A stretch of 64,000 nt of DNA from a virus (Duplodnaviria; Caudoviricetes): positions 90,653-154,652 of IMG/VR virus record IMGVR_UViG_3300032232_001415; one strand, given 5' to 3'. Below the pieces are notes generated by a model, which worked only from the letters and a program-made list of their open reading frames with translations, did not search any database and was not told the DNA's origin. Each line of letters opens with the position of its first letter. Position 1 is the stretch's first letter. The position numbers were made by a program, and so were the translations under genes. Shown here one piece after another: positions 1-23,240 of this stretch.

Positions 1-3000
1 ATCAAAATCTGTAGATGAATCATCTTGTGTTGATACTATATTACTATTAGTTCCTATAGTTAATAAATTATAGTTATTATTAAATCTTAATTTACTATTA
101 CCACTTAATGATGCACTGTTATTATTAAAAGCTATAGAGTTAGGACCAATTTGCCTATTAATAAATTGTCCATTATTATCTATTGATAAAATACCACCAG
201 TTAATGATACCGGGCCTCTCAATGATTCTGTAATATTAAATCCTTCTGTGGTTCCACTATATGAAACTATATTATAGAAATTGACTTTTTCATTTTCTGG
301 AGTAACATCAGCATGCATCACTCTTATCGCTTGTGCTCCTCCTGATCCCCAAATAGTAAAGGGCATTGTGGCAGCATCTGTTCCTTTTGAAGCATTTATT
401 GTAAAACCAAAATCATTATCTGTAGGATCTTGTATAATAAAAATATTATCATATAAATTAAGTCCATCATTATTTGGCATATATTTAATAGAGTTTATGC
501 CACTACCAGCTTTATTATTAATTTTTACTAGTATTCCATTATTTGTGCCAGATAATTTAACAGGCAGCTGCCATGTGCCTTCTCCGTCAGATCCTGCTGT
601 TAATACATGGTCAGCAGTTGTTGATGATCCGAGTCTTATGCGAGATGTTGTTGTTAATCCATTAATATCTAGTGTTGAATCTGGTGATGTTTTATTAATT
701 CCGACTCTACTATTTGTTAGATCATGATGCTCCATAATATTACCAGCAGTATTCATAACAAATAATGCTGTTTGAGCAGTGCCGCTGTTAATAACCACCT
801 TAGTATTATCTATAACTAATTTGTGTAGATTAGATGGTCCTATAACAACAGAATAGTCATTGTTATTGGGTATAGAGATATTATTTCCAATAATTACCGA
901 TCCTATACCAGATGATATATTATTATTTCCAATAATAATTCCACTATTATATAATACAGAATTAGAATTACCCAAAGCAATATTGTCTAATCCATAAATT
1001 TTACTATCTCTACTAATAGGATATATAACCCCACTATATACATTATTACCTAGAATATTATCATCAAAAGTACTGTTAATAGCTAATGGTTTTCCTGATG
1101 GTATAGATCCAAAAGTAACATCTGATAGATCTAATAGGGTATAATCTCCATCATTAGAGTATTCTTGAACATTAGTTATTGTGGTAATAAATGTGGCATT
1201 TTTATTTGTTGGACTTCTTAATTGTACTAAAGCCGTATCGCTAACAATATAATTTAGATTATGAGAATTAACTCTTATTCTGCTTTGAGCCAAGTCTGGT
1301 ACTGTGAAATTATTAATCTTCGATCCTAGTTTATTATTTCGCCCAAATACTAAACCAGATTGTCCATATACGCTATTAGAATTACCAACAACTATTCCAT
1401 TGATAACATAAGAATTATTTCCAACAACAATAGATCCGCTACCAAAAATTTCTGATGATTGAGAAGAATTATTTATACCTATAGAATTTGTTCCTAAAAC
1501 AACTGTTTTTTGACCAATGGCGACAGAATTATCAGATTCTATATAGTTAGAATTTCCAAGTACTGAAGATTTATCAGTATTAATAATTTTATTATAAGAA
1601 CCAACAACATTAATATTAGAACCAGAAATAGTATTCTTGTTTCCAATAAACAAATTAGAATTACTATATTTTGATAAATTATTGGTACCAATAGATATAG
1701 TATTTGTATTTATAGCATCATATGCTACAGGATTTCCAACAGCACTACCATAAGAGTCTATATAAACTCCTGTTTGATTATTTAGTGCGCCTATAATAAC
1801 ATTATTATTACTAGCATTTATTAATGAATTTCCGCTGCCCAATATGATATTATTATTAAGAGTTCCACTAGCATTATTAGAATTGCCAATAATTAATAAT
1901 ATAGAACCATCCTGAGTTTTATTATTTTGTCCTATTAATAAAAGATCAGTTAATGATCCATTACTAAGTTCATTCCTGGCTCCTAATATAACTGTATTAT
2001 CTAATCCATCCGATGTGGCATTATCAAACCCGATTAATATAACATTAGAAGTATCTGCTAAACTAATATCATTACTAATTAAAACTCCATTAGAAATATT
2101 ATTAATATCATTCATTGATCCTATAGATATTAGACTATTTCCACTAGCATTTACAAAATTACCATATATTAAATTTTCATTCCCTGATGATGTAACACTA
2201 GAACCAAAAACTGCATTATTATGTCCTTTTAAATTAGTATTATTTCCTATATGTATATTATGATTACCAGAACTATCAGAATTAGATCCTATGAATATGC
2301 CGGATAATCCTCTGATAGTACTATTTTTAGAAAGTCCAAAAGAATCTGATGTACTTAGAGTGGTATTGTCTATTAGAAAAATATTATTGATACCAGTAAC
2401 ATAGGAATTAGTTCCATATAATAAATTATTATTTCCAGTTACAGCATTTGAGAAACCTATAACTGCTAATCCACTACCATTTAATAAAGAATCATTAGAA
2501 ATTGAGATTATTTTTGGTCCAGTTAATCTATTATTATTACCAACAGAAATACTATTATTTATAGATACTCCAGTATTATTAGATCCTACTAGAGAAAATA
2601 ATACTCCGGTAGCAGTATTTTTTTGACCAACTATAGAGTATTGAACGCTTCCTGATGATTTATTATCTCCTCCTAAAATAATATTAGATAGATTACCAAC
2701 AAATATTTCTTTGCTTATTCCAGTATTATCAACCAAGAATTGAATTTCTCCACTAGTTTGTCCACCTTTCCAGTCTAAAATTCTTGATCTAATTTGAGCA
2801 TAAGGTATTTCTCTATAACTATTGTCTCTTCCAGCAAGAGTTATAATTGCCGGATAACTTCCTGATACTGGAGTTGTTTGTGGATTATGAACTAATAATA
2901 AAGTAACTCCTGTTGGACAATTAGTTATACTTTCCACAATCATACCATCTTTTGCACAGGGGGCGACAACATGAAGAACAGCGTCTGGAACACCTGTTCC

Positions 3001-3192
3001 TATTCCTAATCTACCATAAGCGGAATCAAAGTATACTTGGGCGCGATTTCCTGTTCCATAAATACCAAATGAGCCGCTAAGTGAAATTTCTCCACCAGAT
3101 AATGGATTAATAATATTAGTTCTAATTCCACTATTAAAAGTTATGATTCCACTAATAGTTTGATCACCACTTGTATAAACGATATCAGGCAT
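1..3192 (-). CDS. Fibre/adhesin protein with YadA-head-like beta-roll repeats (3' end runs off the window, at least 1064 aa)
   Basis: Not in the ORF track, consistent with no stop inside the window; spot-checked codons at both ends are open. ATG at 3190-3192 with AAGAGG upstream. Reads MPDIVYTSGDQTISGIITF...RLGIGTGVPDAVLHV, then many xxIGxxN repeats and RVGINKTSPDSTLDING, all typical of phage fibres. Confidence 0.8.
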   Translation of the reverse strand, partial: MPDIVYTSGDQTISGIITFNSGIRTNIINPLSGGEISLSGSFGIYGTGNRAQVYFDSAYGRLGIGTGVPDAVLHVVAPCAKDGMIVESITNCPTGVTLLLVHNPQTTPVSGSYPAIITLAGRDNSYREIPYAQIRSRILDWKGGQTSGEIQFLVDNTGISKEIFVGNLSNIILGGDNKSSGSVQYSIVGQKNTATGVLFSLVGSNNTGVSINNSISVGNNNRLTGPKIISISNDSLLNGSGLAVIGFSNAVTGNNNLLYGTNSYVTGINNIFLIDNTTLSTSDSFGLSKNSTIRGLSGIFIGSNSDSSGNHNIHIGNNTNLKGHNNAVFGSSVTSSGNENLIYGNFVNASGNSLISIGSMNDINNISNGVLISNDISLADTSNVILIGFDNATSDGLDNTVILGARNELSNGSLTDLLLIGQNNKTQDGSILLIIGNSNNASGTLNNNIILGSGNSLINASNNNVIIGALNNQTGVYIDSYGSAVGNPVAYDAINTNTISIGTNNLSKYSNSNLFIGNKNTISGSNINVVGSYNKIINTDKSSVLGNSNYIESDNSVAIGQKTVVLGTNSIGINNSSQSSEIFGSGSIVVGNNSYVINGIVVGNSNSVYGQSGLVFGRNNKLGSKINNFTVPDLAQSRIRVNSHNLNYIVSDTALVQLRSPTNKNATFITTITNVQEYSNDGDYTLLDLSDVTFGSIPSGKPLAINSTFDDNILGNNVYSGVIYPISRDSKIYGLDNIALGNSNSVLYNSGIIIGNNNISSGIGSVIIGNNISIPNNNDYSVVIGPSNLHKLVIDNTKVVINSGTAQTALFVMNTAGNIMEHHDLTNSRVGINKTSPDSTLDINGLTTTSRIRLGSSTTADHVLTAGSDGEGTWQLPVKLSGTNNGILVKINNKAGSGINSIKYMPNNDGLNLYDNIFIIQDPTDNDFGFTINASKGTDAATMPFTIWGSGGAQAIRVMHADVTPENEKVNFYNIVSYSGTTEGFNITESLRGPVSLTGGILSIDNNGQFINRQIGPNSIAFNNNSASLSGNSKLRFNNNYNLLTIGTNSNIVSTQDDSSTDFD

Positions 3193-3225
3193 TATTAACC
3201 TCTTTTATAAAAAAATGTATATTAT

Positions 3226-6200
3226 TTAATTAATACTAATACCACCCTCAGTACTTGCTCTTAATTTATCAAACGCATTTTTAACACTATCTCTGACTAA
3301 ATCTCCTATCGGTCCCTGTAATATATTCTGTAATGCTGATGCTCCATTAATAACTACTTCTACTTTATGAGTACCTTCTACATTAATTATTGGTGGTAAA
3401 TTAATTTTTTGTAATTCTGATACAAAATTATTAAATTTATCAGTAAATTGGCTCAATCCATCTAGTCCAATATTATTTGGTGCTCCATTATTAGATACAC
3501 TATTTCCAGTAGTCGCACCACCAGAAACTATCTGTCTTTGATAGTCTTGTAACGCTTTAGTTGCTACTGTTATAGCATTATTAAAATCTCTAGAAGATTG
3601 TGTTAATGTTGTCAATATTTGACCAAATTCAGGAGAATCATTCTTTGTGGTATTCTGACTATTAGTTAAAGAAGGTGCCATATAACCAAGGTTAGCGTTA
3701 TAATTTCTCATAGTGTTATATGTTAGTGGATCTCTATCCTGAATAGAACTTAGTCTGCTTTGAAGACCACTTGGAAGAGAACGTCCGCTATCTTCATATT
3801 TTCTAGCAGAGACAAGGGATCTCATATCTTTATCTTCTCGATATGATCGTCTTCTTCTTTCCATTTCGTCTTGATATGCTTTTCTCTTTCTTTCTGCTTC
3901 TTCTTTGTATACTTCTCCGCCAGTAGCATACGCCCCAGCATTGATGCTCTTTAATAATGGTAGGTGTTTCTGAGTAGATTCTCTGTTTACTACAAATTCG
4001 CCCGGAGTTAACATGGCCGGAACAGTATCTGTGCCTTTTGGTTGATATGGAACTAACGTTCCAGCAGAAGCATATACTATGCCTCCTCTCTTATATCCCA
4101 TAGATTTCATTATTAGTTTTAAGGTATTATCATATAAATTATTAAAATCATTAATATTTACTGTGTCGGCATCATTATACATTGCTCTGTCTATATCTTG
4201 TTGACTAGATCCTTTAATCAAATCCATAAATTGAACCATATTGGTAAATACTTCCATACCGGGCATTTGTGTTTGATATAAGGTGTCGTGGCCAGTACGG
4301 CCTCTATGTAATTTTTGAACTAATGACCAACCAGCTTTGTTAGTTAAATAATTATTCACATCAGCAGAAATATCAGTTTTCTTGCCGTATCCATCACTAA
4401 TTTTTCCTTCATACATATCTTGCGTATATCCCATTCCTCCTCTAGTGCTAATGTCTTGTAGGGCGTGTGCCATTTCATGTTGAACTACTCCTTTTTGTAT
4501 CTGTTCTTTGTTGAACATCATCCCATTATCTGTTTCTGGCAGACCCCTTTTTTCAGCACCAGCTCTGCCCATAAATCTTCCACGACCCCACTCAGACTCA
4601 GGAAATTCTTTTAAATCAACCCCATAATTTAATGATCCTCCAAAACCAATACGGTTTTTATGCTTATTTTCTCCACTTTTAGACTTACTAATCAATTTTT
4701 TTGCACCCTCTGGGCTACTAGTATATGGTAGTAGCTTTTGAATGAATTCTTCTCTCGCAGCTATCATCGTATCAAAATCCGTTACGTTTATTTTAGCATA
4801 TTGTCCTGCTCCCGCGAAGGTTGATTCCTGTCGATTCGGTCTAGGAGGCGGAGTATTAACAGCAGGATCACGAGGCCCCATTGTTTCGTGGGGCAAGCTC
4901 TCTGTTTTTGGATTTAATCTTTTTACGCCAGCTTCAGGATCCAGAGATCCAATTTCTGGATCCAATATATTTTGTTTAGGTCTTAGTGACTTATTTAGTA
5001 TGTCTGGTAGTTTTCTATTTTGCGGATCTAACTCATTTGCTTGTAATAGTCCATCTTTGTTGATATCCCAAAATTTAAAAATAACAGAAAGTTCATCTTT
5101 GGTTAAATATCCATCTTTTAAGCGAGTTAGATTAGTATCACTATCAATCATGAATCCCATAATAAAGTCGGTTTTATCATATCCTTTGAATTCCTCCTTC
5201 CTTCTTTGGGTCTGTGTTTGGGCAGACCTGAACACGTTATCAAAAGATGCTTGAGTCTTTGACATCCCCTCAGGAGTATATAATTTTTCATCTCTTATTC
5301 TTTTTAATGCTTCAATATTGTTTGGAAGTTTTGCATATTCTCCCTTCCATCTTCCATCATAACCGGATCCGCGGTCTTTGCCAAATAGGCCCTCGCCACC
5401 GCCATTTGGTTTTGGGCCCAAAATATTTACTTTTAACTCACTTATAGCTTCTCTTCTTTCAGCTATTTCTTTTTTTCTTAGCTCTTTCTCCATTCTTCGT
5501 TTTTCTATTCCTTCTCTTTTTGGTCTTTCTGCTTCCCATTTCGCGCGTTCTCTGATGTCTCTATCAATTTTTTCTCTAAGAGCCATATCATCAGACGAAA
5601 GTCCTCCATTTTGTAAATAATTAACCATTCCACCATATTGTTTTGACTGTGGTGTTAAATGAGGTAAAGGGGGAGGTAATTGTGGAGTATTTCTTCTTCT
5701 TGTTTTCTCGGCTTCGCTATCAAATTTATTATTTACCGGAATTTGACTATACTGAAAACGCTTGTATTCTTCTATCATATCTAGAGCAAATTTAATTTGC
5801 TCATATTCTTCTTTGTCTATCGCAGCATCTTTGCGCTGTTTTTTACCTTCCAAATAACCAGATGCTCGTAATCTTTGCTGTAGTTCGGACATTGCTCGAT
5901 TACCTGTAGGAGCTAATTCAGCATTTAATTGTTTTCTTAGTCTATCAAGCATTGCTGCTTTTTGTTTTTCTTCTTGTACTTTTTCTCCTTGTATTCTTCT
6001 GTCATTTAAAGCTTTAGCTCTGGGGCTTTTAAATGGAATATAAGATCCTTCTTGAGCATAAACAATACCACCCTTATATAATGACATATAATCTTCTGGA
6101 AGAGTTATTGGCTTTTCTAAAGTTTTCTGGACTCTTCTGGTAAGATCGAATTCTTCTTTATCTAAAGCTTCCATTCGTCGCTTCATATGAGGAGCATCTT

Positions 6201-9200
6201 TATCAACGTGTCCATTATCAATCATTCTTTGATACTCTGCTCTTCTAGCTTTATAAATTTCTCTTATTAAATCTAGTGGTCTATCATGAAATTTATCTTG
6301 TGAATCTCTGGTAGCAGCATATTCTCTACGTCCTGATGTCATTATGTCAGACAGTTGTCTACTAGCCAAACTAGTCTTTAAATCTGGAGTTAATTCATCA
6401 ACAGACAATGTCCTTGATTTTTCGGCAACTTCTGGCGGGAATAAAAATTCATGCTGTTTCATTCTGCTATGCTGGGCTAGTGGATCTTTTTTCATTGAAG
6501 CATGAGACAGTCTGTATCTTTCTGCTTCTTTTATGGGCATTTCTAACATTCTTAGTTGTAAACTCAGCTTGTCTAAATCTGTTAAATCATCTGAATCTTG
6601 GGTTTGTGATCTTGATTGAGCATAAAATCTTAATGCTTTTGGAGCTTCACTCTCATCCATTGGGAAGAACCATCTTCTTCTGTTCGCTAAAATACCTCCT
6701 GGTTGTTCTGATAATGTTTGACTGTACTCTGATGAGCCTTTTTTGTCGCTTGGATTAGACGCTTCAACTCTCAAGAATCTAACAACTTCATCCAGTTTTG
6801 TATGTTGACCAGCGTATGGATACATTTTTTCATATCCTGGCTTAACACGCATATTAAGAGATCTAATTTGATCAGCAGTAGAGTATTGTATTGATGGCTC
6901 GTCTATATTAGACTGTCTTCTATTTCTTCCTATGGGGGATCCTTTTTGTCTAAGATTTGATCCAACGGAGGCTAATTGAAGCATATCTTCAGCAACTTGT
7001 AATCTTCCATGAAAAGATCCTAATTGTTGACTTTCGTGGAATGGACTAAGAACCCTGTTTGGTCCTTTACCCTGAGCATGTATCGATGGTATTCCTTGTT
7101 TATCTACTACTGTCTTTGTCATAGCATCATACCAACCATTATATTTTCCACTATTTTTTCCACTATCTAACCATGTTGTATAGTTGGGTGCGAAAGGTCT
7201 CTGGTCTTGTTTATTTATAGATGGCGATTCGGTTCCTTCTGTAATCTTAACATTTTCACTATGATAATATGGTTTTCCGCCTTTTTGTAAATAATTAACC
7301 ATTCCGCCTTTCTTGAATCCATAAGCTTTCATAACTTTTTTTAACATTTCTTGAGCCAAAGCATTTTGTCCAAATTTTGGATGATCCATTTTTTCAATCA
7401 GGCTAGTAAATAATTCATTTGGCTTAGCCCAAATATCATCAGAACTATAATCTTTTTGACCAGAATAAAGATCTGGCCAACCTTTTGGATCATATAGAAA
7501 ATCTTTAATATCATTTTTTATGACGCCTAACTTTCCTGCTTTGTATTGTGTTAAAGAATCTGTGCTGCGAAAAGTATGAGCACCACTAGAATGTTGTATA
7601 GCATGACCCATCTCATGTTGAACCATAGCTTCTGTGCTATTTCTATCTTTAAAAGCAAGGTGTGTTCCCCTGGGATCTAAAGTATTTGTTGTAGCTTCAC
7701 CCATCGCTGTAGGATGACCAATAGCACCTGGACCCCAAGATGTTGATCTAATTCCAAAGTCTTGTTTTCTAAGAGCTAGTAATCTAGCTACTCCTTTCGG
7801 ACCACTAGTATATGGCATTAATCTTGAGACGAGATCATTAGCAGATGCATGCATTTGATCAGAATTACTAACATCAATTAATTTTCTATTGCCATAAGTT
7901 TCGGTATTTTGAGGATCCTGATCATATTTTTGTTCAGAAGGTTGCATATCGCCAGGAAGTTGCATACCGCCAGGAAGTTGCATACCGCCAGGAAGTTGAC
8001 TATTACGACTACCGCCACCAACAGGTCGGTAGTTACCATTGGCTCCTGGAAGAGTAAACCCTCCATCTTGTAGATAAGCAACTAATCCTCCCAAACTCTT
8101 ATTTTGCGGTTTCATACCAGCAGCAGCTCTGTCTTTATCATTTGCAAAACGACCAAAAGATTTCTTATCAAGAAGCAATGGTCTACCATCTGGTCTAATA
8201 ATTCTAATATCACCATCAGATGTTACACTATCAAAACGACCCATAATAGATTCTTCTTCCTTACCATCATTATTTAAGTCCCATTTTTTATCACCATACC
8301 AAACTCTTTCGCCAAAAGCCAAGTTCGGCATTTCTCCTCTTCCAACAGAGCCAGATAAATATGGATACTTTTCTGCTTGTTTTTGTTTCATATCTCTTCC
8401 AGCTTTGCCAGATAAATATGGATATTTATCATCAAAATTAGGAGCACTAACCGGTGGCTTCGGAGCAGGAGTTGGTGACGGTTTTGATGGAGCACTAACC
8501 GGTGGCTTCGGAGCAGGAGTTGGCGACGGTTTTGATGGAGCACTAACCGGTGGCTTCGGAGCAGGAGTTGGCGACGGTTTTGTGTTAGTGCCAGTTGTAG
8601 GCGTGGGCGACCCCCCAATACTGCCCCATTTTACAGTATCTCTGATCGTTAAATCATCCGGCCCTCTGCCAGTTTTGGATAAATCCACCGGCTGAGATCT
8701 TCTATCTTTATCTTGTTGTTCTTTGATAGGTTGCTCTTTTAAGAATTTATTTCTGGCTTCTATTTGCTGTTTGAGCAACATTAATCTTTGCTTCAAACTT
8801 AAGTTTTCTGGATCCGGATAGCGACCAGACAATATTTCATCTAGGGTGGGACGTCTTCCTTTTAAGAAATCTCCATCTTTATCTCTTGGCATATTATCAG
8901 CAGAAGATTCTCCAAAAAATCTTCTTTTTGCATTAATTCTATCTGTCTGTGCTTTTCTATCTTTTGTATTCCATGGATTATATTCTCCTGGACGCAATGG
9001 TCTGTCTTTACCGACACCCTGAACTTCATCAAGAAGTGACGTTACATTTTTACGAGCATAGGACTCATCATCTTGATGCATCATAGGTAGCCTATCCCAT
9101 GCTTGGGAATTCATTCTGTCTTTCATTATCTTAGCATATACTGTATCAACACCAATATTATTACCTTTTTTATCTGTTTTAAATAAATCTTGTCCTAAAA

Positions 9201-12200
9201 TAGAGCGGAATGTTTTTTCATACCATGTACTAACCACCGGTGCTGGGCCGTATGGTTTGGGACGAGGACCACCATACTTGTCCTCCAGATATCCTTGAGT
9301 AACAGTAGGCACCTTCAAACCCCATTGAGCATAAACTACTCCACCATTATTCAAATGTTTAACATCTCCTCCCTTACTACTATTAATAGCTTTTAATAAA
9401 GGAAGATGTTGAGAGGTAGATCGCGCATTAACAACAAATTCTCCGGGTGTAAGCATCGCGGGAACAGTATCCGTTCCCTTAGGTTCAAAATTAATTAATT
9501 TACCCGAACTAGCGTATACTACTCCGCCACTGCTAAAACCACTACTAGCAGCAACTTTATCTAATGTCTTTTTAGTATCAGATGTTGTTCCATTTATATT
9601 TTTTAATAATGGATTAGCATAGTTTTGGTTTTTAATATTATTATCATAAATTTTACTACTAGTATCTTTACTAGATATACTGTTTATTCTAGTATCAGAA
9701 ACTAGTTTCTTAACATCTTTTATTTCTTTCAAGGCATTTTGATTATTAATATTTTGAGAAAAATCTGATCTAATTTTAGATGATGCTAATCCTCCATCGG
9801 CCAAATAATTTACTGATCCACCTTTGTTTTTATTAATAGACTGCAATAGTGGAAGATTTTCTTTGGTTGCTCGTGCATTAACTACAAATTCTCCAGGAGT
9901 AAGCATAGCAGGAACAGTATCCGTGCCTTTTGGTTCAAAATTAATTAATCTACCAGAACTAGCATATATCACACCTCCATTACTAAAGTTACCAGCAACC
10001 ATTCCAGTAACAGTATTTGGAAATAAGAATTGAGCAGTTTGTTGGCTTACTCCAAGATTATTTAATCGGGCCGCTGAAGTATTTGCATCTTCTCCTCTTT
10101 TAATAAATCCTTTGTCAATCATTCTATTAATTAAATTCATTCTAAGATTAGCTTGTTGTGCTCTGGTAAGTGAACTTCCTCTGGCTGCGGCTTTTTCAAA
10201 ACTAGACATAGTAGCAAGAGACTTTACGGCCAATGCTTGTTGTTGTCTTTCTAATAATGGTCTTCTTTGAATAGCAATTGCTTTGTCTCTGGGATTAGCA
10301 AGCTGTGTTATTTCATCATTACTAAGTTTAAGTATCTTTTTATCTGTTGCGCTTATTGTTCCTTGCTGAGACATAACATCTGCCCAAGCGCTAAGCTGTC
10401 TATCATTAAATGGCATGAATATAGCTTGAGCAGTATCTGCACTCATATTGTAGTTTTTTACAAAATATTCAATATTATCCTTAGCCAAACCACCAATATT
10501 CCATTTATCCTGTAATCTTCTTAATACATTTTTTCTCCATCCTTCTGCTCTTCTCGGATCAGTTGGAGGATTCATCCCTGATATACCGGCCACTAATTTA
10601 AATCTTTGTAAACTTCTTCTTTCAGCTTGAGAAGCTTCTCTTCTGTCTCTCATTCTTCTGGCAGACTCTGCTCGCGCTTCATCTTTTTTATCTGCTTCTA
10701 TTTTAGCTTTTTCATCACTCTTAGCCTTATCATATTCGTCCCATTTTTGTTTTCTTTCTTCAGGACTAAGATCTTTAAATTTAGCATTAGTATCTACAAT
10801 CTGAGTATTTACTTCATTTATTTTTCTACCATAATATGTTTCTATCTCTTTGATTTTTTTTGCATGGTCTGCTCTTTTACGTTCTAATATGATAGCATTA
10901 TTTTCTTTAGAATATCTACCCTCAGGTTTAATATCTGATCCATATAATTCATAATCTGCCATAGTAAGAACGGAACCTTGATCATCCATCTTTCTTTGTA
11001 AGCTTGCTCTAGCTTCAGTCATTTGTTGTTGCAGATATGCTCTTTGTCTTGCAAGCTTATCTACTTCTTCTATTTTTTCTGGTATTATTGGTTTATTTAT
11101 ATATTGATCAGCTTGTTTTGCTACAGCGGATGGAATTCTAACATTATTATATGTAGAAACTAAAGAACTTCCCAGATTTAACAAATTTTGTCCAGCATTC
11201 TGTATTCCTTCAATTCCTTGATTAATATTTTGTTCTAATCCTGGTCTTTCATAAGTATTAAACATAAATGTTTCATTTGCTTTGTGAGCTCTTTCTTCTT
11301 CTTTTCTTTTTTGCTCACTTTTAATCTCTTGTTCTTTCTGAAGGACAATATAATCATTAGTTAGTCTTTCTAACTTAGCATCTTCATCAGTATATCCTGA
11401 TCCACCTAAATATGGATTTTGATGCACCGGTAATGATCCATTCATGAAAAGAGAATTTCTTTCTCCATTCTGATTATATATTTCTTCCTTAAAGTTTTTA
11501 TCAAGATATTTATCAACATAGCCGATTGGATTGTTACTACTTAATGCTTGATCTATTGTGGATTGAGATAATCCTTGTTCTTGAGCAAATCTTGTAAAGC
11601 GGATTTCAAAAGTTAAGGTGTCTGTATCATACTTGCCTATTTCATTTCTTGCTTTTTCAATATCTCTTTTTACTCTTGCTCGTCTACGTGCCCATCTAAT
11701 CGCGGTTGTTGTGAATCCTTGTGTCATTTGAAATTCGCGACCACTAGCTGTACCAATTTCAGCAGATGGTAGTCCATAATTTCTTCTTTCAGTTTCCTGT
11801 CTAAGTCTTTCGGCTTCCGCGCTAGCGGAGGCAGCGCCACCAATAGCTACTGATGTTCTTCCTACTGCTGCTGGTATTCCTCTTCCTGGTATCCATGTGC
11901 TAGGACGAGAAATGCTCATATCTGTACCAAAAACATTTCCAACAATATTGGTTCCAATATTTCCTTCTTCCATTTGTTGTCTGGTTTCTTCGTTTTTTGC
12001 TCTAATATATGCTGGAGTATCATATACTGCTGATCCTATTTCATAAGCTGACTGCACACCAATTTCCGTAAGAATCATAGCAGGACCTTGAGGGGCACGT
12101 AATGGTGCTGGAGCATTAGGCCATATCACAGATGGCCTAGTTACTGGCATATTAGCAGCTGGTATTGCTGCTCTAAGTCCTTGTCTTCCTCCGCTTCTAT

Positions 12201-15200
12201 AGGCAGTATTTGCCGCTTGTGCTGTTAAACCAGATGCTCTTGATGGTAAACCAGCTGACTGAGCTGCTGTGACACCAATATCAGAAATTGCACCAATTTC
12301 TTCAACAACAATTCCTGCGTTTTCACCAGCCACAGCAGATACTGCTGCACCTCCAGCTGTTCTCAAAACATTTCTAGCAACATTACCACTAACTCCTGAT
12401 GAAGTAGCAGCGCTAAAAGCAGCAGAACCAGCCCTTGCTGCTCTTTGTCTCGCTGTTGGTTTGGGTTTTCCTGGTTTTGGCTGAGCATCCATATCTGCAA
12501 GAGCATCAGCAGCAGCATCAGCTGCTGTTACTGGCTTACTGCTTCCTTTTTTCAGATAAACTGGTCCACCACTATTTTTATTAATAGCATTTAATAATGG
12601 AAGATTATTTTTTGTGGCTCTTGAATTAACAACAAATTCTCCGGGACTCAACATTGCGGGAACAGTATCAGTTCCTCGTGGTATAAATTTACCAGAACTA
12701 GCATATACCATACCGCCGCTAGCTTTATTCATTACATTTCCTGGTCTTTGTATTCCTAATCCAATTTCTCTTAATTGTTGAGTATTAAAATTAATAGTTG
12801 TTTCGCTAATAGCTTTGCGAATAGCCTCTCCAGCAGTTTGAATTAATGTTATTTGCTGCTCATTTAATGTTCCAGCCAGAGCCTGAGTAGCATCACTCAA
12901 TGCTGTTTGTTGAACATCTATTAAAGCATTAAGTTGCTTTACTATAGGATCTTCACCAGTATCTTTTTCTAAAAGACTCAATGCTTTTGTAACAAATGGA
13001 TCATTTTGTAATCCATTATTTCTAGCCATACCTCTAATCATATCTGCTCTTAATTGATTACTTTCCTTGCCCTCAAGACCCATCATCTGAAGCATTTCAT
13101 TAAATGTAGCAAAAGCTTGTTTATTTTCATTAGAATATGCTTCTTGAGCAGCAGTCATAGCTTCCTGTTGTGTTCCACCATCTTTAATAATCTTACTATA
13201 AGCTTCATTAGCAGCTGCTGATTGTTGAATAGTTCTTATTTGACCATTTAATGTATTAGTGACTAATTCATATGAATTCCTCATATCCATAAGTTCTTGA
13301 GGAGTTCCAGTAACCATTTTTTCCGCAAATCCGACACTAGCTTGTCTTACTGTTTCTATTTTTGCAACTCTTTTTTGTATTTCATTCATAGCATCTTCAA
13401 TACTAGATTGTATGTTAGATGCTATATTTTTTAATCCATCTTTTGTTTTAGTTATCTGATTATTTAAGTCAGCAATTTGTCTTATAAAAGATTGTAGTTG
13501 AGCTTGAACTCTAGGATCAGCTAAGTTTGCACCAGAAGATTCAAAGGATCTTTTTTGTTCGCTAACTCTATTTAATTCTTGAGAAGCTATTTTATATGCT
13601 GCCATTAAATCAGTTGTATTTAAAGATCCTGTTTTAACACCAGCTTTAATTTCTGCTGCCTGAACTCTTGCTGATCCCCTTTCGCTTACTCCTACTTCTT
13701 TACCTAGTAATTCTTTTTGACGAATATCTATATTTTTTTGATTGACTATATTCTCTGCATATAAATTATTAATTTCGCTTTGTAAAGCTATTGATTTTTC
13801 AATTGCGTTAGCATAAATATTTAATCCTTCTTCTACTGCTGTTATGATCTTAGTAGTAGATTCCATTAATTGTTTATTAGCTTCTGTTAAATCATTTAGT
13901 CCAGTTAACTCATTAATAAACGCATCTAAGTCGAATTCTCCGCCCTCTTGTTTTTTAGCTCGTTGAGCATCAATAGCTGATGCTATTTGTTTACGCAGAT
14001 TATCTGTTAATCTATTATCTCCAAAAGATTTAATAAGCTTATCAGTTAATGCTCTTTGAATATTTTCAGCAGCTAATTCTGGATCAGTTCCTGCCTGTTG
14101 GGCCTGAGCGGCCATACTAGACGCTATGGTTCTAGCATCTCCACCAAAGGATGCTAATTGTTCAACAAATTTAGCATCAGAACCAAAGAAGCCACTAACT
14201 TGACGCATAGCCCCAGATTGTTGATTAGAACTATATGCATTAGGATTGCTAATTATATTTTTAGCATTGAACGATGTTTTTAAAGAAACCGTTCCATTAG
14301 CGATATCTTCTAATCTTGAACTAACATTTTGCAAAGAAACAGAAGTTTTTGCAACAGCAGAGTCCATATTTGCAAATGTACGACTAATAGAAACGGTTGA
14401 CATATTAATAGCTTTTGCTAGCTTTGATGAAGCTTTAGCTCTTTCAGCATCTGCTGCTGCTATTTGTAGTCCCGCCGTTTCTTGCTTAAAGTATGTTTCT
14501 ATAAGTGCTTTTTGTTCATTTCTGATTTCTTCCTTTGTAGCATCATCAGTATATTTATCTGCTAATGCTCTTTCTAGTTTAGCATTTTTTGCCTGAAATT
14601 CAGCACTACCTTCTGCTATCTGTTTTTTAACCGCATCTTGATTTGGACCTAAAGAACCCATGGCTGCTCCAAACCCTTTTCCGCTATATGCTGTAACTTG
14701 GTTACTCAATAATTTAATTGCAGCATCTGCACCCGCCCTATTTGTTGCTGCTCTTTCTTGACCAAGTTCAGTATCATTTTGTTTTGTAGTATTAAACATA
14801 TATCCGGCAGTTATATAATTACCGAATTTTTGCAATACTCCTGGTTGTTTAAGTTGATCATTTTTAGTTTGAATTTTACCTTCTTCTTCTGATATTGTTT
14901 TTATTCCTTGTAATACAGAGTTAGTTGCTGCTGTATCTTTTGCATTTCTTGATAGTCTTTCAAAATTTTTGTCAATACCAGCACTAGTATTTTCTATTTT
15001 CTTTTCACTTAATTCTTTTTCTGCTTGAGCTACTCCTTTATTATATCCTTCAACAGCTAAAACTGTTCCTGCTATAGCTCCAACTAAAGCACCGTATGGA
15101 CCAAATTGAGAACCTATGGAAACTGCTGTACCAAAAGCTGTTCCGCCAGCAGCAACTCCGGCGCCCTTTGCTCCTCCTATTGATGATCCAATATTTTCAG

Positions 15201-18200
15201 CAGCCATCGGAATAGCAAATGCTGCTGCTAGTCCTTTATTTTGCCAACTTGAAGTACTGTTTCTTCTAGCTTCTATTTGATCTTCGGTTAAAACTTTACC
15301 AGTTAATGTTGTTTTGCCAGTTACAAATCCTTTAACATTCTTTAGCATTCCTCCTGTTGTGCTAGCGGTTACCGAAGCGGCCTTGGATATTTGTTGGAAA
15401 AATCCAGCAGACTGCTTAGCGCTATTAGTCATGCTATTCACTATTTGATCTAAACGCGCCTGAGACATAGTAGAAGAAGATCTATTAATAAAAGGCGGAG
15501 GAGCAGCAATCTGACTTCCCCTAACTCGTCCTTCTGCTGGACCAAACAATGATTCATATTGATAAGTATATCCTATACCCCTATTTGGAGCAGAGGCTTC
15601 AAAAGCTTCTTGGCTGCCTCTAGTACCAACTTTTGTTGTATCTGCTCCTGGTCCTGTGATTCTACGATTACCTTTTACTCTGCCTCGTTCGTCAACCTCA
15701 AATCCTCCAACAACATCTCCTCTGGAGGCTGCTCTTCTTTCTAGTCTTGCTTGTTCTATATCTGCTCTGTTTACAGGTATGGCAGTAGAAGCTTTTTGTT
15801 CATCAGTTAATCTACTACCGCTAGAAGTTTTCAATTGTTGAGGAACCATAGACGTTGGTCCCTTAGGAGGACCTTGTATACTATCTGTAACTTCTTTTCT
15901 AGCCTTATCCAAAGCTTCTCCAAGACTCATTCCTCCCTTAATTAATTGTGCCGCAAGTTTTTTAGCCTGTTGCTCAAGACCCATATCATCCAAACTTTTT
16001 GTAAGTCCTCCATCAACAAATTTTTGCACAGTACCGACACTTCCACCCTTATTAAATCCTAGTATTTTATCAGCACGATTTAATTTATTTAATCTTGGTA
16101 ATCCTATACTTTGTGCCGCTCTTTTATTAATAACAAATTCACCAGGAGTTAAAAGAGCAGCAACAGTATCTTCTGAATGTCCTCCACTAGCAAATTTTCT
16201 AAACATTCCAGAATAACCCACTTTGCCGCCAGTATGAAATTTTGCCACTTCTTTTGACTCTGGAATTCCATATTGTTGTCTAAAATATCTTTGAAATTCT
16301 TTTATGGCTTTTCCTCTGCTTCCACTATCAATGGTTCTTTTAACTTCTGTGGGGATATTAGGATCAATACCAAATATTTTTGCTGCTTTAGGCCCAATAC
16401 CCATTGGGAAGTCAATTGGGCGAGTTCTTAAAGCATCATCTAATATTGTAGCATCTGCTGATCCAAAAATTTGCTCTAATAAAGCACCCTCAATATTACC
16501 TTGTCCTAATGTTTCTCGTTGTTTTTTTGTTAATTTCTTGGGAGATATTCCCAGAAGTTTGGATGCTCCTCCTACAATTTCTTCTGTTTTTCCACTAAGA
16601 TAATCAATTACATTTTGATATTGATTTGGTAAGCCTCTTTGAACTATTGAAGCATCTATTGATCTTTCTTGTCCAGATGAATCGACTCCAAGATTCCAAG
16701 TTTCTGGCCCTAATAGTCCAGTATAACCCAACGGATTTAATCCAACTAGCCCCAACTGCTGAGACGATAACACCGCACTAGTAGTATCTGATAATGCTTG
16801 TGCTGATTTGGTTCCTTGAGATTCATTAAATTTTTGTATTAAGTAATCTCTAGTAGCAAAATAATATGCTTGTTTTTCGGGATTAGTTGCTGGAGGTAAG
16901 CTGGTTTGCCAATATTTTAATTTACCTCCATCAGCAGTGTCTCTTACTGTTTTTCCTCCGAATGGACCAAAACTTGGATCACTTGGTAGTCTTTCAGATC
17001 CAAATCTTTTTAATATCTCTGTTCCTTGTGTTGGTAATATTCCAGAGGATTTCTTGACCTGGGTGGCCTTTTCTACATTTTGTAGTATTGCCGCTTCTAG
17101 TCCAGAAGGCATCGCTGTTGAAACTCCTCCAAATTCACCACTCATCTGTTCTGATAATTGCGATGCTATAGCTTCCTTTGTTATATCTGATGGCTGTGCG
17201 GATACTGAGGATTTTCTTGACGGATCTATTCCATAAGTTTCTGGATATTTAGCAGATAATGCTCTGATTATATTATGCGCCCTATATCCAAATGCTCCTT
17301 TAGACACTCTGTCTCTTTTATCTCTTATCTGTTTAACTTGATCAGCTATTTCTGGATAATTCTTCTTTAAATCAGCACTAACATTACCATAAGGACCACC
17401 AGGAGCATTTGATAATATTTCTGTAACCTCAGTATTGGATCGTGCTTTATCTTGATCAACAAATTTTTGTATTTCTTCAATTAGCATAGGAACCATAGTG
17501 CTACGATTACGTAATTGTGCTCTATTGCCCATTAATACTGATGCTATATCAGGATGCAAGAGGCTAGTTAGTGTTTTATCATCGCCATGAAATAACGCAT
17601 CTCTAACTTTGGTAGCGCTAATATCTTCTATTCTAGGAATGTCTTTAACATCTATTCCTGCTCTTTGGTATTTACCTAATGTTTTATCATCTTTACCAGA
17701 AGTTATTGCCATAGCTCCTTTTAGTTTAGCGAATTTTCTTCTATCTCCACTACCAGCAACTTCCATAAATTTTGATAAACCGCCAGCAGGCTGACCTTGA
17801 GTGCTAATCATAGCATTTCCAAAATTAATTTGGCTGAATAAAGCTCTTAAATCTTCTTGAAAAATACCATATCGTGCAGCATGATCTATTCCTTCTTTAC
17901 CAACAACCATTGGAAGATCCGTGGCAACATTAACAACAATATCTTCTAAAGAAGCGTTTGGATTTTTAGCTAACATATTCTCTAATAAGGTATCTAATGC
18001 TCCTCTGTGTCCTCTGGTTGGAGGAGCAAAACCGCCCATATAAAATCCACCAGCCTGAACCATTTCCGGTAATTCACTATCTTTTTTACGTCTTAAACCA
18101 AAACTATCTTTTTTTCTTCCAAGAACAGTGGCTTTTTTACCCAATTCGTCTCGTAGTATAGTTTCTTCCAAAGCAAAATCAGCGTCAGCTCCTCTTGTGG

Positions 18201-21200
18201 TTCCTGGTTTACGACCATATAAGCCTTCTCCTGTAGTATCTCTACTATCTCTATTTAATCTAATCTGATCTTGCTCACCTCTATTATTAGAACTTAATAC
18301 ATATGCTCTATCAACATCTTTTAAATAAGCATCTAGCTTAGACTGACTAGCTGTGGAAGTTAATACAATGACTTCATTAACTTTTTCTATATCTTCGGGC
18401 GTTAATATTTGAGAGCGAACTGTTTTTCTTAAAGTCGCATCATCAGTTGCTCCTTTGCCAGTTGCCAAACTACTTTTTCCACTTCCAGCAGCTCCAGCAA
18501 TAGCTCTAAACTTAGATAATGATCCAGTTTTTCTGGCTTTAGCAGCTAACTCTCCAAGCTTTGTTGTATAATCACTAACATCTGTTATTCCAAGTTTTTC
18601 CATTGCTTTATCAACAATACTAGCATTTGCAGGATCTCTTAAAACATCAGTATCAACTATCCCGATATTTCTTAATACCTGTCCTCCAGCACCATAAGCT
18701 TGTCTTTTAATACCAGCATTACTGAATAATTCATTTAGCGTAGAATCTAAAATTCCCTGCATATTAGAGTCTAGTTTAGGAGCGTTCTGAATAAGAGTAG
18801 TTAAAAATTCTTCTTTACCATAATCTTCTACTTTTCCTATCGTATCTTGTCTCTGTCCACCTTTTAACAGTATCTCATTAATTTTTGGATTGATTGGTCG
18901 ATACTCTCTAGCATTTTTCTTTTGTCCAGACTCTACCCACATAGAGTATGCTTCTTTAGATAGTTCAGGATTTGCGCCTCTTCCCCCGAAGTTCATAGTT
19001 TCTTGTCTCAAATTTTGTAAAACAGTATCAAGTAAACCATTCTTATAAGAGCGTCCATAAACAACATCAGCACTATTATAACTTCCACCCAATGCATCAA
19101 ATGCGTCTGCAAGACCATCATTGTCTCCATTAAATAATTGAGACACTCTTTCTTTATATTTTGTAAAACTATCTTCTGATTGGGTTCGTAAAGAATTCAA
19201 TAATTGATGTGTTAATTCATGATATAAAACATTTTTTGGTTGATTACGATCAAAAGCATTACTAGCCATCGAAACAAATCCTCGACCTGTTGATTCTAAA
19301 ATGCCCTTCTTTTGCTCCATAAGACCTTTACGAGCAACTGCTTTTTTGCTCATTATATCTGATACTTTCTTACCCAATGCCATTTTTTCATCCATAGATT
19401 TATTAAAAGCCACAGTATCATAACTGAATGATCCATCTTCATATGTTGTTACTGGTGTTTTTAAGATTTTTTTGGTTTCTTTTGTTTTTTCATCTAGTAG
19501 TTTTTGGTATCCAAATAAATCTTGTTCATCAGCTTGTGTGAATCCAAAAGGTTCTAATCCTTTATCGTCATATCCCTGAGCCCCAAAAGGATCTCTACTA
19601 AATTTTCCACGATATCCATAAGTTTGTAATTTACCACCAAAATCTATAGTTTGTGGTAAAACTTTACTTAAGTCTTCTTCTGGTAATCCTATAAATTTAG
19701 CAAAATCTGATAGATTACCCAATAATTCATTACGGCTAATTTTGGTATTAAATAAACTTAAAAATCTTTTACGATCAAAAGGTTCGCTCTGGAATTTTTG
19801 TTGTACTTCTGCAGGATCGACCGTTATTCTTTCATTGGTAGGATAAGGATCGAAAGCATTATTTACTCTTTCTAGATCTAGTTTTTTCTGCAATTCTTTA
19901 GCATAAGCATTAGTAATACGCTTAGGAAATTTTGTCTCTCCTGTTCCAAAGGGTATAGCTTCTGCTTTTCCTCCAGCCATAAATTTTTGAATCATTCCTC
20001 CAATATTTTTCTTTTGTATTTTTGAAGATCCAGCTGGAGAAAAGTCTTTAATTGTCTCTTCAACAGTTTTTCCAGGAAATCTTTTTTTATATTCTTCTTT
20101 TGTCATTGAGCTAGCAGCGCCACTACCATATGGTACTGCTAATCCAGAACTCATTAATTTATTAGCTAATTCATTATCTTCTAATAAAATTCTACCATAT
20201 TTTTCATTTTTTTTATTTCCTGATGGTCTCAATAATTTTAATATATCTTGATTAGATTTTGTTTTATAATGATCTGTAGCAACTTCTTTAGCTTTTAAGC
20301 CCAATGTTTTTTGCCAACTATTTTTTCTTCCTCCTTTATTTGTTACTTCAAAAGCATCAACTCCTAAGAGTCTTGTTCCTGTATCAAAAGGATCATCTGT
20401 TGGAGTTACATTGATATTCAATGTATCTCCATCAGTAACTCTATTTAAGTTATTGACAGAAACTATTCCTCCAATAGCATATTTTTTTCTTTTTCTTGAT
20501 GCTCCAGACTTAATAGTGCCTCCAATTCCATATTTATTCATTCTATGTAAATTACTAGCCCCTATAGTCTGCACAGCCCTTTTGCGTATAACAAATTCTC
20601 CAGGCTCTAACATTGCTGGAACAGTATCTCCATCACCGCTACCAGGAACAACTCCTCCTCTGGCAAATTTATGTATCATTCCACCACTATTTTTTTTTGT
20701 TGTTCTTAAACCTCCTGCAAAACCGGTTGCAAATTGACCTAAAGCACTTACTCCTCTAATAGCAGTAATAGCAGTTAGTGCTGGAATAACACCCTTAGCA
20801 GCATCTGCTATTCTTATAAGTCCACTAGTTAAATCAAGAGACATTTTAATAAAGTTTTGGAATCCACTATCATTTCCAATTGATCTAATTAAAGCTGTAA
20901 ACTCTTCTCTTACTTTTGTAAGCTGAACAGCAAATGCTTGTTGTGCTGTGGTAGCATCTCTTGCCAATGAACCTTGTCCTCTTTGAGCAACTACCAATGC
21001 TTGTTGTGCTGTTGCAAATTCTTGAATAAGTGGTATAACTTTACCAATTTGTCGGAATCCACCAAGTTCTTCAACTATTCTACTAAATCTTAGATCTCTA
21101 GGATCTAATTGACTAAGACCAGCACTTAGTCTTTTAACAGCTTCATATGGCCCAACGAATTTTCCTTGTAAATCTGTTAAGTTAACTCCAAATTCTTTTA

Positions 21201-22331: not shown

Positions 22332-23240
22332 TTAACTATTTGAAGCAGGCGATTCTGGACCATTTGTTGATTCGACGGAAGTTTTAGTCTCTTCTGAGTT
22401 TTTAACTTCTGCTGCTTCAACTGATGGTTGTGGTGTTGTTTCATTTTCTAGTACTACCGGATTTCCGTCGTCATCTAAAAATGGTTGTGAATCAACAATA
22501 TAATCTCCATCTTTATCTACCTTATTACCAAATTTATCCACAAAGTTACCAGCTTCGTCAATATATCTGCCACTCTCATCAACTAGTCTGCCTTCAATAT
22601 CAACCAGTCTGCCTTCTTTGTTAATGAGCCTTAGTTTATCATCAACGAACTTAAATTTTTGTAAAAATTTATTTTCTGGTAAACTCTTTTCAAAATTGTT
22701 ATCCAAACCATAAATCATGTTAGCCAATTTTTGAGCACCAACAAGAGCGACGGGGTCATCTGTTCTATTTAAATAGTCTTCTAAACTCTTAAAATAGCGC
22801 TCATTATTCTCTTTATACACCACACATGATGATACAAGATAGTTAAATCTCGCATTATCAGCTTGACCTTCTGCGCTATGATTATCCAAACTAGTTCTAA
22901 CACTAATTAAATCTCTTATTTCTTCTCTTGTTTTTTTCATTTCAAGAGCAAGATTTTTAGCCTCTTTAAGATTAAATCCTCCTTTAGCTAGTCTTTTTTC
23001 ACCATCAAGAATTTGCTGTTGTAGTTCAGTGAACTTAGCCTGTTTTTCTTGATTCCATAGCCCTTGCTCTTCCAAAAGATCATCAAGTTTTGCTCTAACA
23101 ACAGCCTTAGATTTTATAGCATCAGTAAATGCTTGATTATATGCTTTCTGAGCTTCTCTTTGATCATTCAAAGTAGGAGAACGAACGGTAAATTCTTTGT
23201 CTTTGCTATCAACGGTAACTTTAAAATTTTCAGTTTTCAT
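22332..23240 (-). CDS. Probable tail assembly chaperone
   Basis: Helical charged 302-aa protein directly upstream of the TMP, with C-terminal 7-aa (V/I)DxxGxx repeats. Function assigned from position. Confidence 0.55.
   Translation of the reverse strand: MKTENFKVTVDSKDKEFTVRSPTLNDQREAQKAYNQAFTDAIKSKAVVRAKLDDLLEEQGLWNQEKQAKFTELQQQILDGEKRLAKGGFNLKEAKNLALEMKKTREEIRDLISVRTSLDNHSAEGQADNARFNYLVSSCVVYKENNERYFKSLEDYLNRTDDPVALVGAQKLANMIYGLDNNFEKSLPENKFLQKFKFVDDKLRLINKEGRLVDIEGRLVDESGRYIDEAGNFVDKFGNKVDKDGDYIVDSQPFLDDDGNPVVLENETTPQPSVEAAEVKNSEETKTSVESTNGPESPASNS

Follow-up and report, generated by a model that had tools for sequence, protein, structure and literature searches.

The locus examined here raises the question of why one phage protein carries the same double-glycine sequence many times over, and whether this sequence marks places where the protein is cut or places where its gene is recombined. 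Tape measure proteins (TMPs) are usually viewed as rulers that sometimes bear one cell-wall enzyme. The protein in question, encoded within the window (the whole stretch of 64,000 nucleotides of viral DNA that was analysed), is a much larger molecule of 6,340 aa, and its gene comes from an uncultured contig.

A giant tape measure protein and its junction modules

As judged from family profiles, this protein is a TP901-family TMP (PF10145/TIGR01760). Its N-terminal domain matched PF10145 (1.8e-23, 83.9 bits; cut-off 33.2) and TIGR01760 (3.8e-26, 91.9 bits; cut-off 28.8), and several tape-measure PHROGs also matched the protein, which contains no cysteine. Hydropathy analysis revealed that the N-terminal domain closes with a hydrophobic stretch (aa 476-506) and that the conserved helical body contains a hydrophobic segment (aa 2381-2401). 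Across relatives, the identity of this body tracks that of the N-terminal domain (rho 0.57). By its position, and by analogy with the lambda, T5 and Douge structures (PMC12617516, PMC10038345, PMC13033339), the C-terminal tail would be expected in the tail tip. All genes lie on one strand, with tail fibre and baseplate-like ORFs at 29075-63983; the immediate neighbours of the TMP gene gave no family match, so that none of them could be named as the chaperone, Dit or Tal.

The full junction module comprises ~70 aa and consists of a GG strand (aromatic-A/S-x-GG-h-V-Y-A-x-x-G), the core DTVPAMLxPGEFV, a short helix (..LPLL..IN) and a second GG strand, while the short form is one GG-x7-GG strand. 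The preliminary description had listed six long copies and seven short units. There were six matches to D[TS]V[AP]A[ML]LxPGEFV, and a profile made from the copies recovered exactly six modules in the TMP, with cores where they had been placed, and all seven short units were located as well (Table 1). Seven GG pairs in the TMP have a spacing of exactly 9 residues. The motif GGx[VI]x0-2[YF] has 15 matches, whereas 2,000 shuffles gave 0.8 on average and 6 at most, and its density of 2.4 per 1,000 aa is ~8-fold that in the other virion ORFs of the window (0.28; 14,349 aa), which makes the GG unit TMP-specific within the window. Across the family, 1,334 occurrences were observed versus ~85 by chance.

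Table 1 Features of the giant TMP gene. Coordinates are those of the window; the motif column gives the residue at which the long pattern matches and the position of its GEFV core, or the position(s) of a short unit.
Feature	Residues (aa)	Coordinates	Strand	Motif	Evidence or remark
Giant TMP gene	1-6340	3226..22248	-		single ORF, 6,340 aa, from ORF list and translation
N-terminal domain	1-516	20701..22248	-		56-74% identity in 207 relatives
Long module 1, with trailing YGIGG and YAIGG	517-600	20449..20700	-	aa 541; 20599; YAIGG 20472	pattern and profile
Cargo cassette, staphylococcal-nuclease-fold domain	601-737	20038..20448	-		phrog_452 at 1.5e-7
Short unit GGMIQKFMAGG	745-762	19963..20016	-	20001/19974	left edge of recently exchanged block
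Cargo cassette, HExxH (zincin-like) helical domain	763-1182	18703..19962	-		confident AF2 domain; HELTH at aa 1010
Degenerate unit YGAGG	1183-1192	18673..18702	-	18687	pattern
Cargo cassette, P-loop and HIGH-type nucleotidyltransferase-like region and further domain	1193-2001	16246..18672	-		weak Pfam hints
Long module 2	2002-2084	15997..16245	-	aa 2027; 16141	right edge of exchanged block
Conserved helical body	2085-3172	12733..15996	-		found in 138/150 relatives
Long module 3	3173-3236	12541..12732	-	aa 3194; 12640	pattern and profile
Long module 4	4086-4156	9781..9993	-	aa 4110; 9892	pattern and profile
Long module 5, with extra GGVVYAQWG unit	4236-4310	9319..9543	-	aa 4260; 9442	pattern and profile
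Short unit GGLVAYLQDGG	4715-4732	8053..8106	-	8091/8064	pattern
Short unit GGMVNYLQKGG	4976-4993	7270..7323	-	7308/7281	closes HEMGH cassette
Short unit GGIVYAQEG	5388-5402	6043..6087	-	6072	pattern
Short unit GGMVNYLQNGG	5534-5551	5596..5649	-	5634/5607	pattern
Long module 6	6050-6116	3901..4101	-	aa 6074; 4000	pattern and profile
C-terminal tail	6117-6340	3229..3900	-		conserved in 95/150 relatives

Searches of the modules against NCBIfam and Pfam gave no match at E up to 0.1; the module is an uncatalogued domain for which neither database has a dedicated model, and by sequence likeness it corresponds to the element present as a single copy in lambda gpH. A profile search found it in 16,830 cluster representatives, and the best 150 of these (935-7,872 aa, 3-10 copies each) were taken for copy statistics. 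In this set, the first copy directly follows the N-terminal domain, the median distance between the end of the last copy and the C-terminus is 144 aa and, in the count of copies per TMP that had been proposed earlier, copy number increases with TMP length (r = 0.68). The smallest relatives are nearly cargo-free (4 modules in 2,289 aa). Giant TMPs of uncultured phages with 3-11 copies of the module number in the hundreds. According to the preliminary description, the motif is usually single and close to the C-terminus; this agrees with most cultured-phage TMPs, such as those of lambda (gpH, 733-785 of 853 aa) and Pan1 (742-805 of 876 aa), and all 100 matched cultured-phage records had one place each.

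Enzyme cassettes and their exchange among relatives

The cassette behind module 1 was modelled as a confident domain for which Foldseek returned staphylococcal nucleases (TM 0.5-0.57 on the target), and it matched PF00565 below the cut-off (0.006). Homologues of the HExxH domain that follows occupy varying positions in 19-32 relatives, and the cassette aa 1193-2001 is present in 71 of the 150. In total, the TMP contains three HExxH domains (aa 1010, 4878 and 5924), although no Pfam peptidase model exceeded its threshold on the TMP despite these motifs and the confident helical domain. In the AlphaFold model of aa 590-1200 (mean pLDDT 85.9), values below 50 were obtained solely at aa 738-761 and 1187-1200. 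These gaps coincide with two GG units between the nuclease and HExxH domains, as expected if linkers match domain borders. Modelled alone as a monomer, the module gave a poor fold prediction apart from one helix. Structure prediction thus places the modules in disordered gaps between folded domains. The view that a linker stands at every cargo boundary is overstated, since multi-domain cassettes contain borders that lack a GG unit, as near aa 1675 inside the cassette aa 1192-2002.

Comparison with relatives bore out the claim that cassette breakpoints fall at the linkers, and endpoint, edge-unit and block-identity data agree in this respect. Homology endpoints fell within linker zones in 43% of cases, with these zones making up 8.5% of the length. 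A unit was found at the cassette edge in 11/12, 11/14, 22/29, 90/92 (module-3 edge of the body segment) and 15/15 (HEMGH-type homologous cassettes, which terminate in a unit) relatives, versus 2/12, 2/14, 4/29, 9/92 and 4/15 at random positions. At the site of the degenerate YGAGG, relatives carry a full GGxVQKFAxGG.

Individual exchanges were also visible. A block of ~1,240 aa, with a GG unit at its start and at its end, is 85-100% identical in one relative whose backbone is 22-61% identical. Identity to the relative P0170 rises from ~40% to ~100% at GGMIQKFMAGG, and the block that it has in common with the TMP is flanked by GG units on both sides. DNA matches to another relative (L007) have their boundaries at aa 1183 and 2001, with 84.9% identity across the cassette aa 1193-2001. 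Throughout the relatives, backbone identity co-varies with N-domain identity and cassette identity does not. The modules divide a vertically inherited backbone (N-terminal domain, ~1,100-aa helical body and C-terminal tail) from exchangeable enzyme cassettes, and these alignments indicate that they are the points at which related phages exchanged cassettes. The breakpoints, together with the linker-positioned gaps in the model, therefore support both the domain-boundary and the cassette-swap readings.

Function of the module: cleavage, docking or DNA repeats

Why do the exchange points coincide with the units? The suggestion that the units supply homology for swapping was weakened, as they offer little of it in the DNA: the longest identity is 23 bp, dS is near saturation and, within the unit at the mapped right junction, few bases are common to the two DNAs. 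The units mark the exchange points without necessarily causing the exchange. The 23 bp common to 5609-5631 and 7283-7305 are exact, as described earlier, with no further extension, and such an identity has P ~0.02 for that heptapeptide given the codon usage of the gene. Module copies are 62-78% identical to one another in DNA. The reported predominance of synonymous differences between copies 4 and 5 was confirmed (dN 0.18, dS 1.24, dN/dS 0.15), which places conservation at the protein level; the modules are under purifying selection as protein, and are conserved as such across lambda, cyanophages and mycobacteriophages. Exchange junctions at units and the single 23-bp repeat linking two of them are what one would expect if the repeats were mainly DNA-level recombination substrates with an incidental protein sequence, but with the DNA diverged and the protein kept we regard this as very improbable. 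The swap points are most simply explained by selection, because joints outside the linkers give no working protein, and short microhomology may have made a minor contribution.

The explanation that accounts best for these data overall, and which we consider fairly probable, is that of a conserved non-globular junction module of TMPs, which in this modular giant TMP is repeated and serves as the regular connector. A fuller version, drawn by analogy and falling somewhat short of an even chance, takes the module as an extended, flexible strand for docking or processing. Cuts would then fall immediately upstream of all the units or of some of them, in the manner of lambda gpH and T5 pb2 (before AEGGMMY), and would be made by a protease distinct from the HExxH domains within the TMP. 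The cysteine-free, probably unfolded chain would be threaded out of the tail, whereupon cutting would free the enzymes. Its strongest form remains tentative and is rather unlikely to hold entirely: the lambda-type module would be a portable "cut here" signal and the tail-delivered TMP of this widespread family of uncultured phages a true polyprotein, which would pass through the tail unfolded. A host or tail-associated protease would cut at every module and so release into the infected cell enzymes (nuclease, peptidases and nucleotide-modifying enzymes) that differ from phage to phage and can be exchanged horizontally.

Two other accounts of the protein element have to be weighed against cleavage by a separate protease. 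It is possible, if on balance unlikely, that the module is an uncut structural element whose strand and helix bind a partner (possibly a protein of the tail tip, the lumen of the tube or the tail assembly chaperone) or keep three TMP chains aligned with one another between bulky inserts. The lack of a fold in the isolated module is what would be expected of a segment that becomes ordered when bound, the module belongs to the invariant backbone even of the smallest relatives, its first copy invariably comes after the hydrophobic end of the N-terminal domain, as in lambda, and in TP901-1 a part in assembly and in recruiting the chaperone has been ascribed to C-terminal beta and hydrophobic regions (PMC5099701). 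However, the lambda and Douge maps show the module as disordered or do not resolve it (PMC12617516, PMC13033339), and docking leaves the cuts beside it in lambda and T5 unexplained. Processing in cis, with the units as cleavage sites for the TMP's own HExxH domains, was the route implied by the preliminary description, and for polyvalent phage proteins zincin-like peptidases have been put forward as the enzymes that process them (PMC5512222). The three such domains of the TMP, the regular ending of HEMGH-type cassettes in a GG unit and the occurrence of at least one HExxH in 51/151 relatives, versus none in shuffles, agree with it. Nevertheless, because 100/151 multi-module relatives have no HExxH, these domains cannot be the general protease; they act as swappable cargo rather than as backbone, and lambda and minimal family members have the module but no zincin, which makes cis processing improbable.

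Self-cleavage found no support, since no catalytic constellation is conserved between the lambda module and the TMP copies. Double-glycine leader (C39) processing does not fit: the strand between the GG pairs is internal and no leader, the TMP is cysteine-free, and searches of the TMP and of neighbouring ORFs gave no match to a C39 or other cysteine peptidase.

The giant TMP is thus a modular carrier, with a fixed backbone and enzyme cassettes exchanged by related phages at points marked by one conserved element. The same element adjoins the half-century-old cleavage site of lambda gpH (PMC12617516), and the family therefore offers a concrete, testable candidate for a TMP processing signal. 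If true, a "cut here" signal would also account for the cleavage of gpH to gpH* and would point to a route for loading foreign proteins into phage tails. A domain model of the module would improve the annotation of thousands of TMPs.

Comparison with known systems

The closest counterpart is lambda gpH, in which the module (FATGG..HRGEFVF..YATGGYVG) lies after a hydrophobic glycine-rich stretch and before the tip-binding C-terminal helix. In a one-sequence search the six-copy profile aligned to residues 733-785 (E 2.7e-6), and a 141-copy profile aligned over 751-784 (E 4.3e-7). Maturation of gpH to gpH* and gpHC proceeds by a cut near the upstream edge of the module, at about aa 690-730 (placed within ~20-40 residues), so that the module remains inside gpHC (PMC12617516). 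The lambda protein has one copy and no enzyme cargo in 853 aa, and its version lacks the DTVPAML part, whereas in the giant TMP cassettes are delimited by six full copies and by short ones, at least seven in number. The curated NCBIfam model of the lambda C-terminal region, TIGR01541, which matches lambda 686-853 at 5.7e-49, gave no score with the giant TMP copies. In T5, cleavage behind R1127 splits pb2 into pb2* and pb2C (PMC10038345), at a single site (PR/AEGGMMY, cut at the slash) that lies past a hydrophobic stretch and two residues ahead of GGMMY...GEHGTEVV, and that parts the TMP body from an enzyme-bearing C-terminal piece. This likeness is short and was seen by eye; the module profiles did not score on pb2 (-3.7 and -3.0 bits).

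Mycobacteriophage TMPs (TM4 gp17, PMC1796659; Douge gp16, PMC13033339) resemble the giant TMP in having an enzyme inserted in the TMP. In Douge gp16, modules at 964-1013 and 1412-1461 flank an NlpC/P60 match at 1295-1331, and two copies were found in 67/102 records of this kind. These proteins of ~1,700 aa contain a single enzyme and no more than two modules, and their cargo consists of cell-wall enzymes, unlike the nuclease, nucleotidyltransferase and zincin-like domains found here. No solved tail structure shows the module (PMC12617516, PMC13033339). The 5,002-aa TMP gp96 of Thermus phage P23-45 (PMC10770324) is a giant fused to a virion RNA polymerase that is delivered with the DNA; it has a single N-terminal cargo in place of a cassette array, and a scan revealed no module copy and one chance GG-unit match.

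Finally, the polyvalent proteins of phages and conjugative elements are very large, with unrelated enzyme domains in series, often including zincin-like peptidases. They are head-packaged or transferred by conjugation, and both delivery and processing have been proposed for them (Iyer et al. 2017, PMC5512222). That survey mentions no TMPs and describes no conserved junction module. The giant TMP shares with these proteins the presence of several unrelated enzymatic domains, namely the staphylococcal nuclease fold, three HExxH domains and weak hints of a P-loop and a HIGH-nucleotidyltransferase.

The tape measure gene and its repeats

Every gene in the window lies on one strand, including the giant gene of the tape measure protein (TMP), in which aa 36-532 match tape measure families (PF10145, 1.8e-23; TIGR01760, 3.8e-26; and several tape-measure PHROGs). 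No Pfam or PHROG match was obtained for the seven ORFs directly upstream of the TMP (22332-28353, -) or for its direct downstream neighbour (1-3192, -), an ORF with a length of 1,064 aa or more; the genes expected for the chaperone, distal tail and hub proteins can therefore not be recognised from sequence. A megablast search of the TMP gene against cultured phages gave no DNA match. A neighbouring protein occurs on metagenomic contigs, one of which measures 0.2-1 Mb. The tail fibre-like set is unusually large: its products include proteins of 1,883, 1,878 and at least 2,414 aa, as well as one of 848 aa that bears three laminin-G/ConA-like domains.

Features of the window and positions of the module in three reference tape measures
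Feature	Position	Strand	Basis
Giant TMP gene	3226-22248	-	single ORF, 6,340 residues
Cargo block shared with relative P0170 (zincin-like + P-loop/nucleotidyltransferase-like cassette), ~1,240 aa	~16260-19990 (aa ~750-1995)	-	identity
Commonest cargo cassette (71 of 150 relatives)	16246-18672 (aa 1193-2001)	-	Walker-A motif and GxFxPxxxGH-type (HIGH) nucleotidyltransferase-like motif; Pfam hints sub-threshold only (PF16581, PhoH)
EF-hand-like loop (DINKDGLLQANELD)	~5070-5130 (aa ~5715-5735)	-	sub-threshold EF-hand Pfam matches
In-frame tandem repeats: three 48-nt units (Pro/Thr/Ser-rich 16-mer) and three 18-nt units (LPGGMQ)	8441-8584 and 7935-7998		inside TMP
243-aa ORF among tail genes	28344-29075	-	weak sulfotransferase-family matches (PF03567, 7.5e-4; phrog_3347, 2.1e-5)
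Tail fibre/baseplate-like gene array	29075-63983 (upstream half of window)	-	similarity of encoded proteins
Lambda gpH module	733-785 of 853 aa		profile match
Cyanophage Pan1 TMP module	742-805 of 876 aa		profile match
Mycobacteriophage Unicorn TMP module	829-902 of 1,333 aa		profile match

A pattern search for the core D[TS]V[AP]A[ML]LxPGEFV located six occurrences in the TMP (aa 541, 2027, 3194, 4110, 4260 and 6074), at the window positions where the preliminary description had placed six long copies of a double-glycine linker. The aligned copies, referred to here as modules, span ~65-85 aa each: a 'GG-h-V-Y-A-x-x-G' strand is joined through a short spacer to the DTVPAMLxPGEFV core, which is followed by a helix (..LPLL..IN) and then by another GG strand. 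The seven short GG strands (units) that had been listed were also all found, and seven GG pairs are spaced by exactly nine residues, giving 'GG-x7-GG'. The motif GGx[VI]x0-2[YF] occurs 15 times in the TMP (shuffle mean 0.8, maximum 6) and 1,334 times across 151 family proteins, against ~85 in shuffles; it occurs 2.4 times per 1,000 aa of the TMP, versus 0.28 for the remaining ORFs of the window. The shuffles and the comparison with these ORFs rule out chance or low complexity as the source of the units. The 23-bp identity remarked upon between two short units is exact, but with codon usage taken into account it departs only mildly from expectation (P ~0.02). Protein-level conservation of copies 4 and 5, which had been proposed from their synonymous differences, was borne out (dS 1.24, dN 0.18, dN/dS 0.15) and, as DNA identity among the module copies is 62-78%, the repeats are therefore old and have been kept as protein.

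Distribution of the module

A profile built from the six copies matched 16,830 cluster representatives when searched against 1.84 billion proteins. The top 150 matches have lengths of 935-7,872 aa and contain 3-10 copies; the first copy directly follows the N-domain (aa ~515-625), and a median of 144 aa separates the end of the last one from the C-terminus. The number of modules increases with TMP length (r = 0.68), and the smallest full-length relatives (2,289 aa) retain four. The N-domain is common, at E <=1e-20, to at least 561 clusters of 3,487-11,095 aa, which lie on contigs reaching 235 kb; one is labelled as from a Sphingobacteriia MAG.

The module was present in 100 of 50,697 cultured-phage records, always under a TMP gene and in one place per record; the hosts are Mycobacterium, Gordonia, Nodularia, Burkholderia, Ralstonia, roseobacters and others. 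These records, together with the positions in lambda, Pan1 and Unicorn, confirm the earlier statement that tape measures usually have one copy of the motif, towards the C-terminus. Some mycobacteriophages carry two copies (67 of 102 records). Pfam and NCBIfam contain no model specific to the module (that of lambda falls within TIGR01541), and searches of the modules and most cassettes against them returned nothing or sub-threshold matches only. The sole match of the module profile in a PDB sequence search was the TMP of mycobacteriophage Douge, in whose structure the module is not visible. The element is a lambda-type TMP module that has been reused as the regular joint in a large family of modular tape measures carrying enzymes, a role of which no description was found in the literature searched; no paper containing both 'tape measure protein' and 'GEFV' was found either.

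Domain borders and cassette exchange at the units

With 40 relatives in the alignment, AlphaFold modelled aa 590-1200 at a mean pLDDT of 85.9 and with two confident domains, a staphylococcal-nuclease fold (aa 590-737) and a helical HExxH domain (aa 764-1186). Values of pLDDT below 50 were confined to aa 738-761 and 1187-1200, which are the GGMIQKFMAGG and YGAGG units. A monomer prediction of one module (141 aligned copies) reached a pLDDT of 59.8, with the helix alone confident; as an isolated monomer the module does not fold, and it is a linker-like element rather than a domain. A role of units and modules at domain borders is shown by these data. The claim that linkers mark every cargo boundary stands in part: two units coincide with the low-pLDDT gaps of the model, but no unit marks the border near aa 1675 inside the aa 1192-2002 cassette.

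In BLAST alignments of at least 150 aa between the TMP and 150 relatives, 713 internal ends were obtained, of which 43% fell inside linker zones covering 8.5% of the TMP and 60% lay within 15 aa of such a zone, versus 14% for random positions. In the relatives, a unit was found at the N-edge of the nuclease cassette in 11 of 12 cases (random positions, 2 of 12), of the zincin-like cassette in 11 of 14 (2 of 14) and of the aa 1192-2002 cassette in 22 of 29 (4 of 29), and at the C-edge of the helical body in 90 of 92 (9 of 92) and of the HEMGH cassette in all 15 (4 of 15). The sequence GGxVQKFAxGG precedes the cassette starting with QVLRNIGIxDTDVLRD regardless of the upstream content, aa 761-1183 are missing from one relative precisely from unit to unit, and the zincin-like cassette occupies widely differing positions among relatives.

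The helical body is present in 138 of the 150 relatives, the C-terminal tail in 95, the aa 1192-2002 cassette in 71 and the others in 1-19. Body identity follows N-domain identity (rho 0.57, p 2e-12), as does that of the C-terminal tail (rho 0.58); cassette identity shows no such relation (rho -0.01, -0.09 and -0.20). Identity between the TMP and P0170 amounts to 61% for the N-domain and 22% for the body, but to 85-100% across the shared cargo block; it rises inside the unit at aa 750-760 and drops at the first of the GG units in module 2. Because the block is so much more similar than the 22-61% identical backbone, it has the appearance of cassettes transferred horizontally, and recently, between divergent phages. 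The DNA of a JGI contig (L007) aligns with TMP nucleotides 3548-6002 (aa 1183-2001) at 84.9% identity, and the match stops directly after F-x-x-GG-x-V.

The endpoint clustering, the edge counts, P0170 and L007 all place the cassette breakpoints of relatives at units, as had been anticipated. Cassette exchange at units is thereby shown; this evidence locates the exchange and does not make the units its cause. The further proposal, that the linkers supply homology for swapping, is weakened by the mapped junction, at which the two DNAs have only a few bases in common.

Precomputed EF-hand (PF13202), ADP-ribosyltransferase (PF03496) and SHD1 (PF03983) domains are carried by TMPs of relatives. The 6,340-aa TMP contains no cysteine, 207 of 236 relatives are likewise Cys-free, and cysteine frequency is 0.056 per 1,000 aa across the family versus 6.6 for the remaining ORFs of the window. 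This near-absence fits a chain that needs threading and folding outside the producing cytoplasm.

Processing and comparison with characterised tape measures

Cleavage at the modules or units is plausible by analogy. Processing of TMPs has been reported as common (PMC1796659, PMC4205034). Lambda gpH is cut near its module to give gpH* and gpHC; the N-terminal part of gpHC (~690-817), which includes the module, is absent from the resolved structure (PMC12617516; PMC10721106), and T5 pb2 is cut after R1127 (PMC10038345), where the sequence reads FVPR before the cut and AEGGMMYPGVSYQMGEHGTEVV after it. To the eye, the T5 site looks like a compressed unit; the module profile gives it no score. Basic residues are enriched just ahead of GG in the family (31% at position -1). 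As for the agent, the suspected zincin-like domains are weakened as a protease acting at the units, as HExxH is absent from 100 of the 151 multi-module relatives and the HExxH domains behave as cargo. Self-cleavage was dropped, since no nucleophile or acid residue is common to the lambda module and the TMP copies (D33, T34 and N62 are missing in lambda). Natural gene splits at modules were rejected as a proxy for cleavage: the short module-bearing proteins resemble truncated gene calls, one of them beginning inside a module.

In P23-45 gp96, the only characterised giant cargo-bearing TMP (PMC10770324), no module was found; cleavage is not addressed in that paper, and tape measures are not mentioned in the polyvalent-protein paper. 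Douge gp16, encoded at 768-5864 of the phage record (L009), has two module copies (964-1013 and 1412-1461) flanking an NlpC/P60 match (1295-1331), and its published map shows neither the modules nor the enzyme. A hydrophobic stretch (aa 476-506) precedes the first module of the TMP, an arrangement also seen in lambda and T5.
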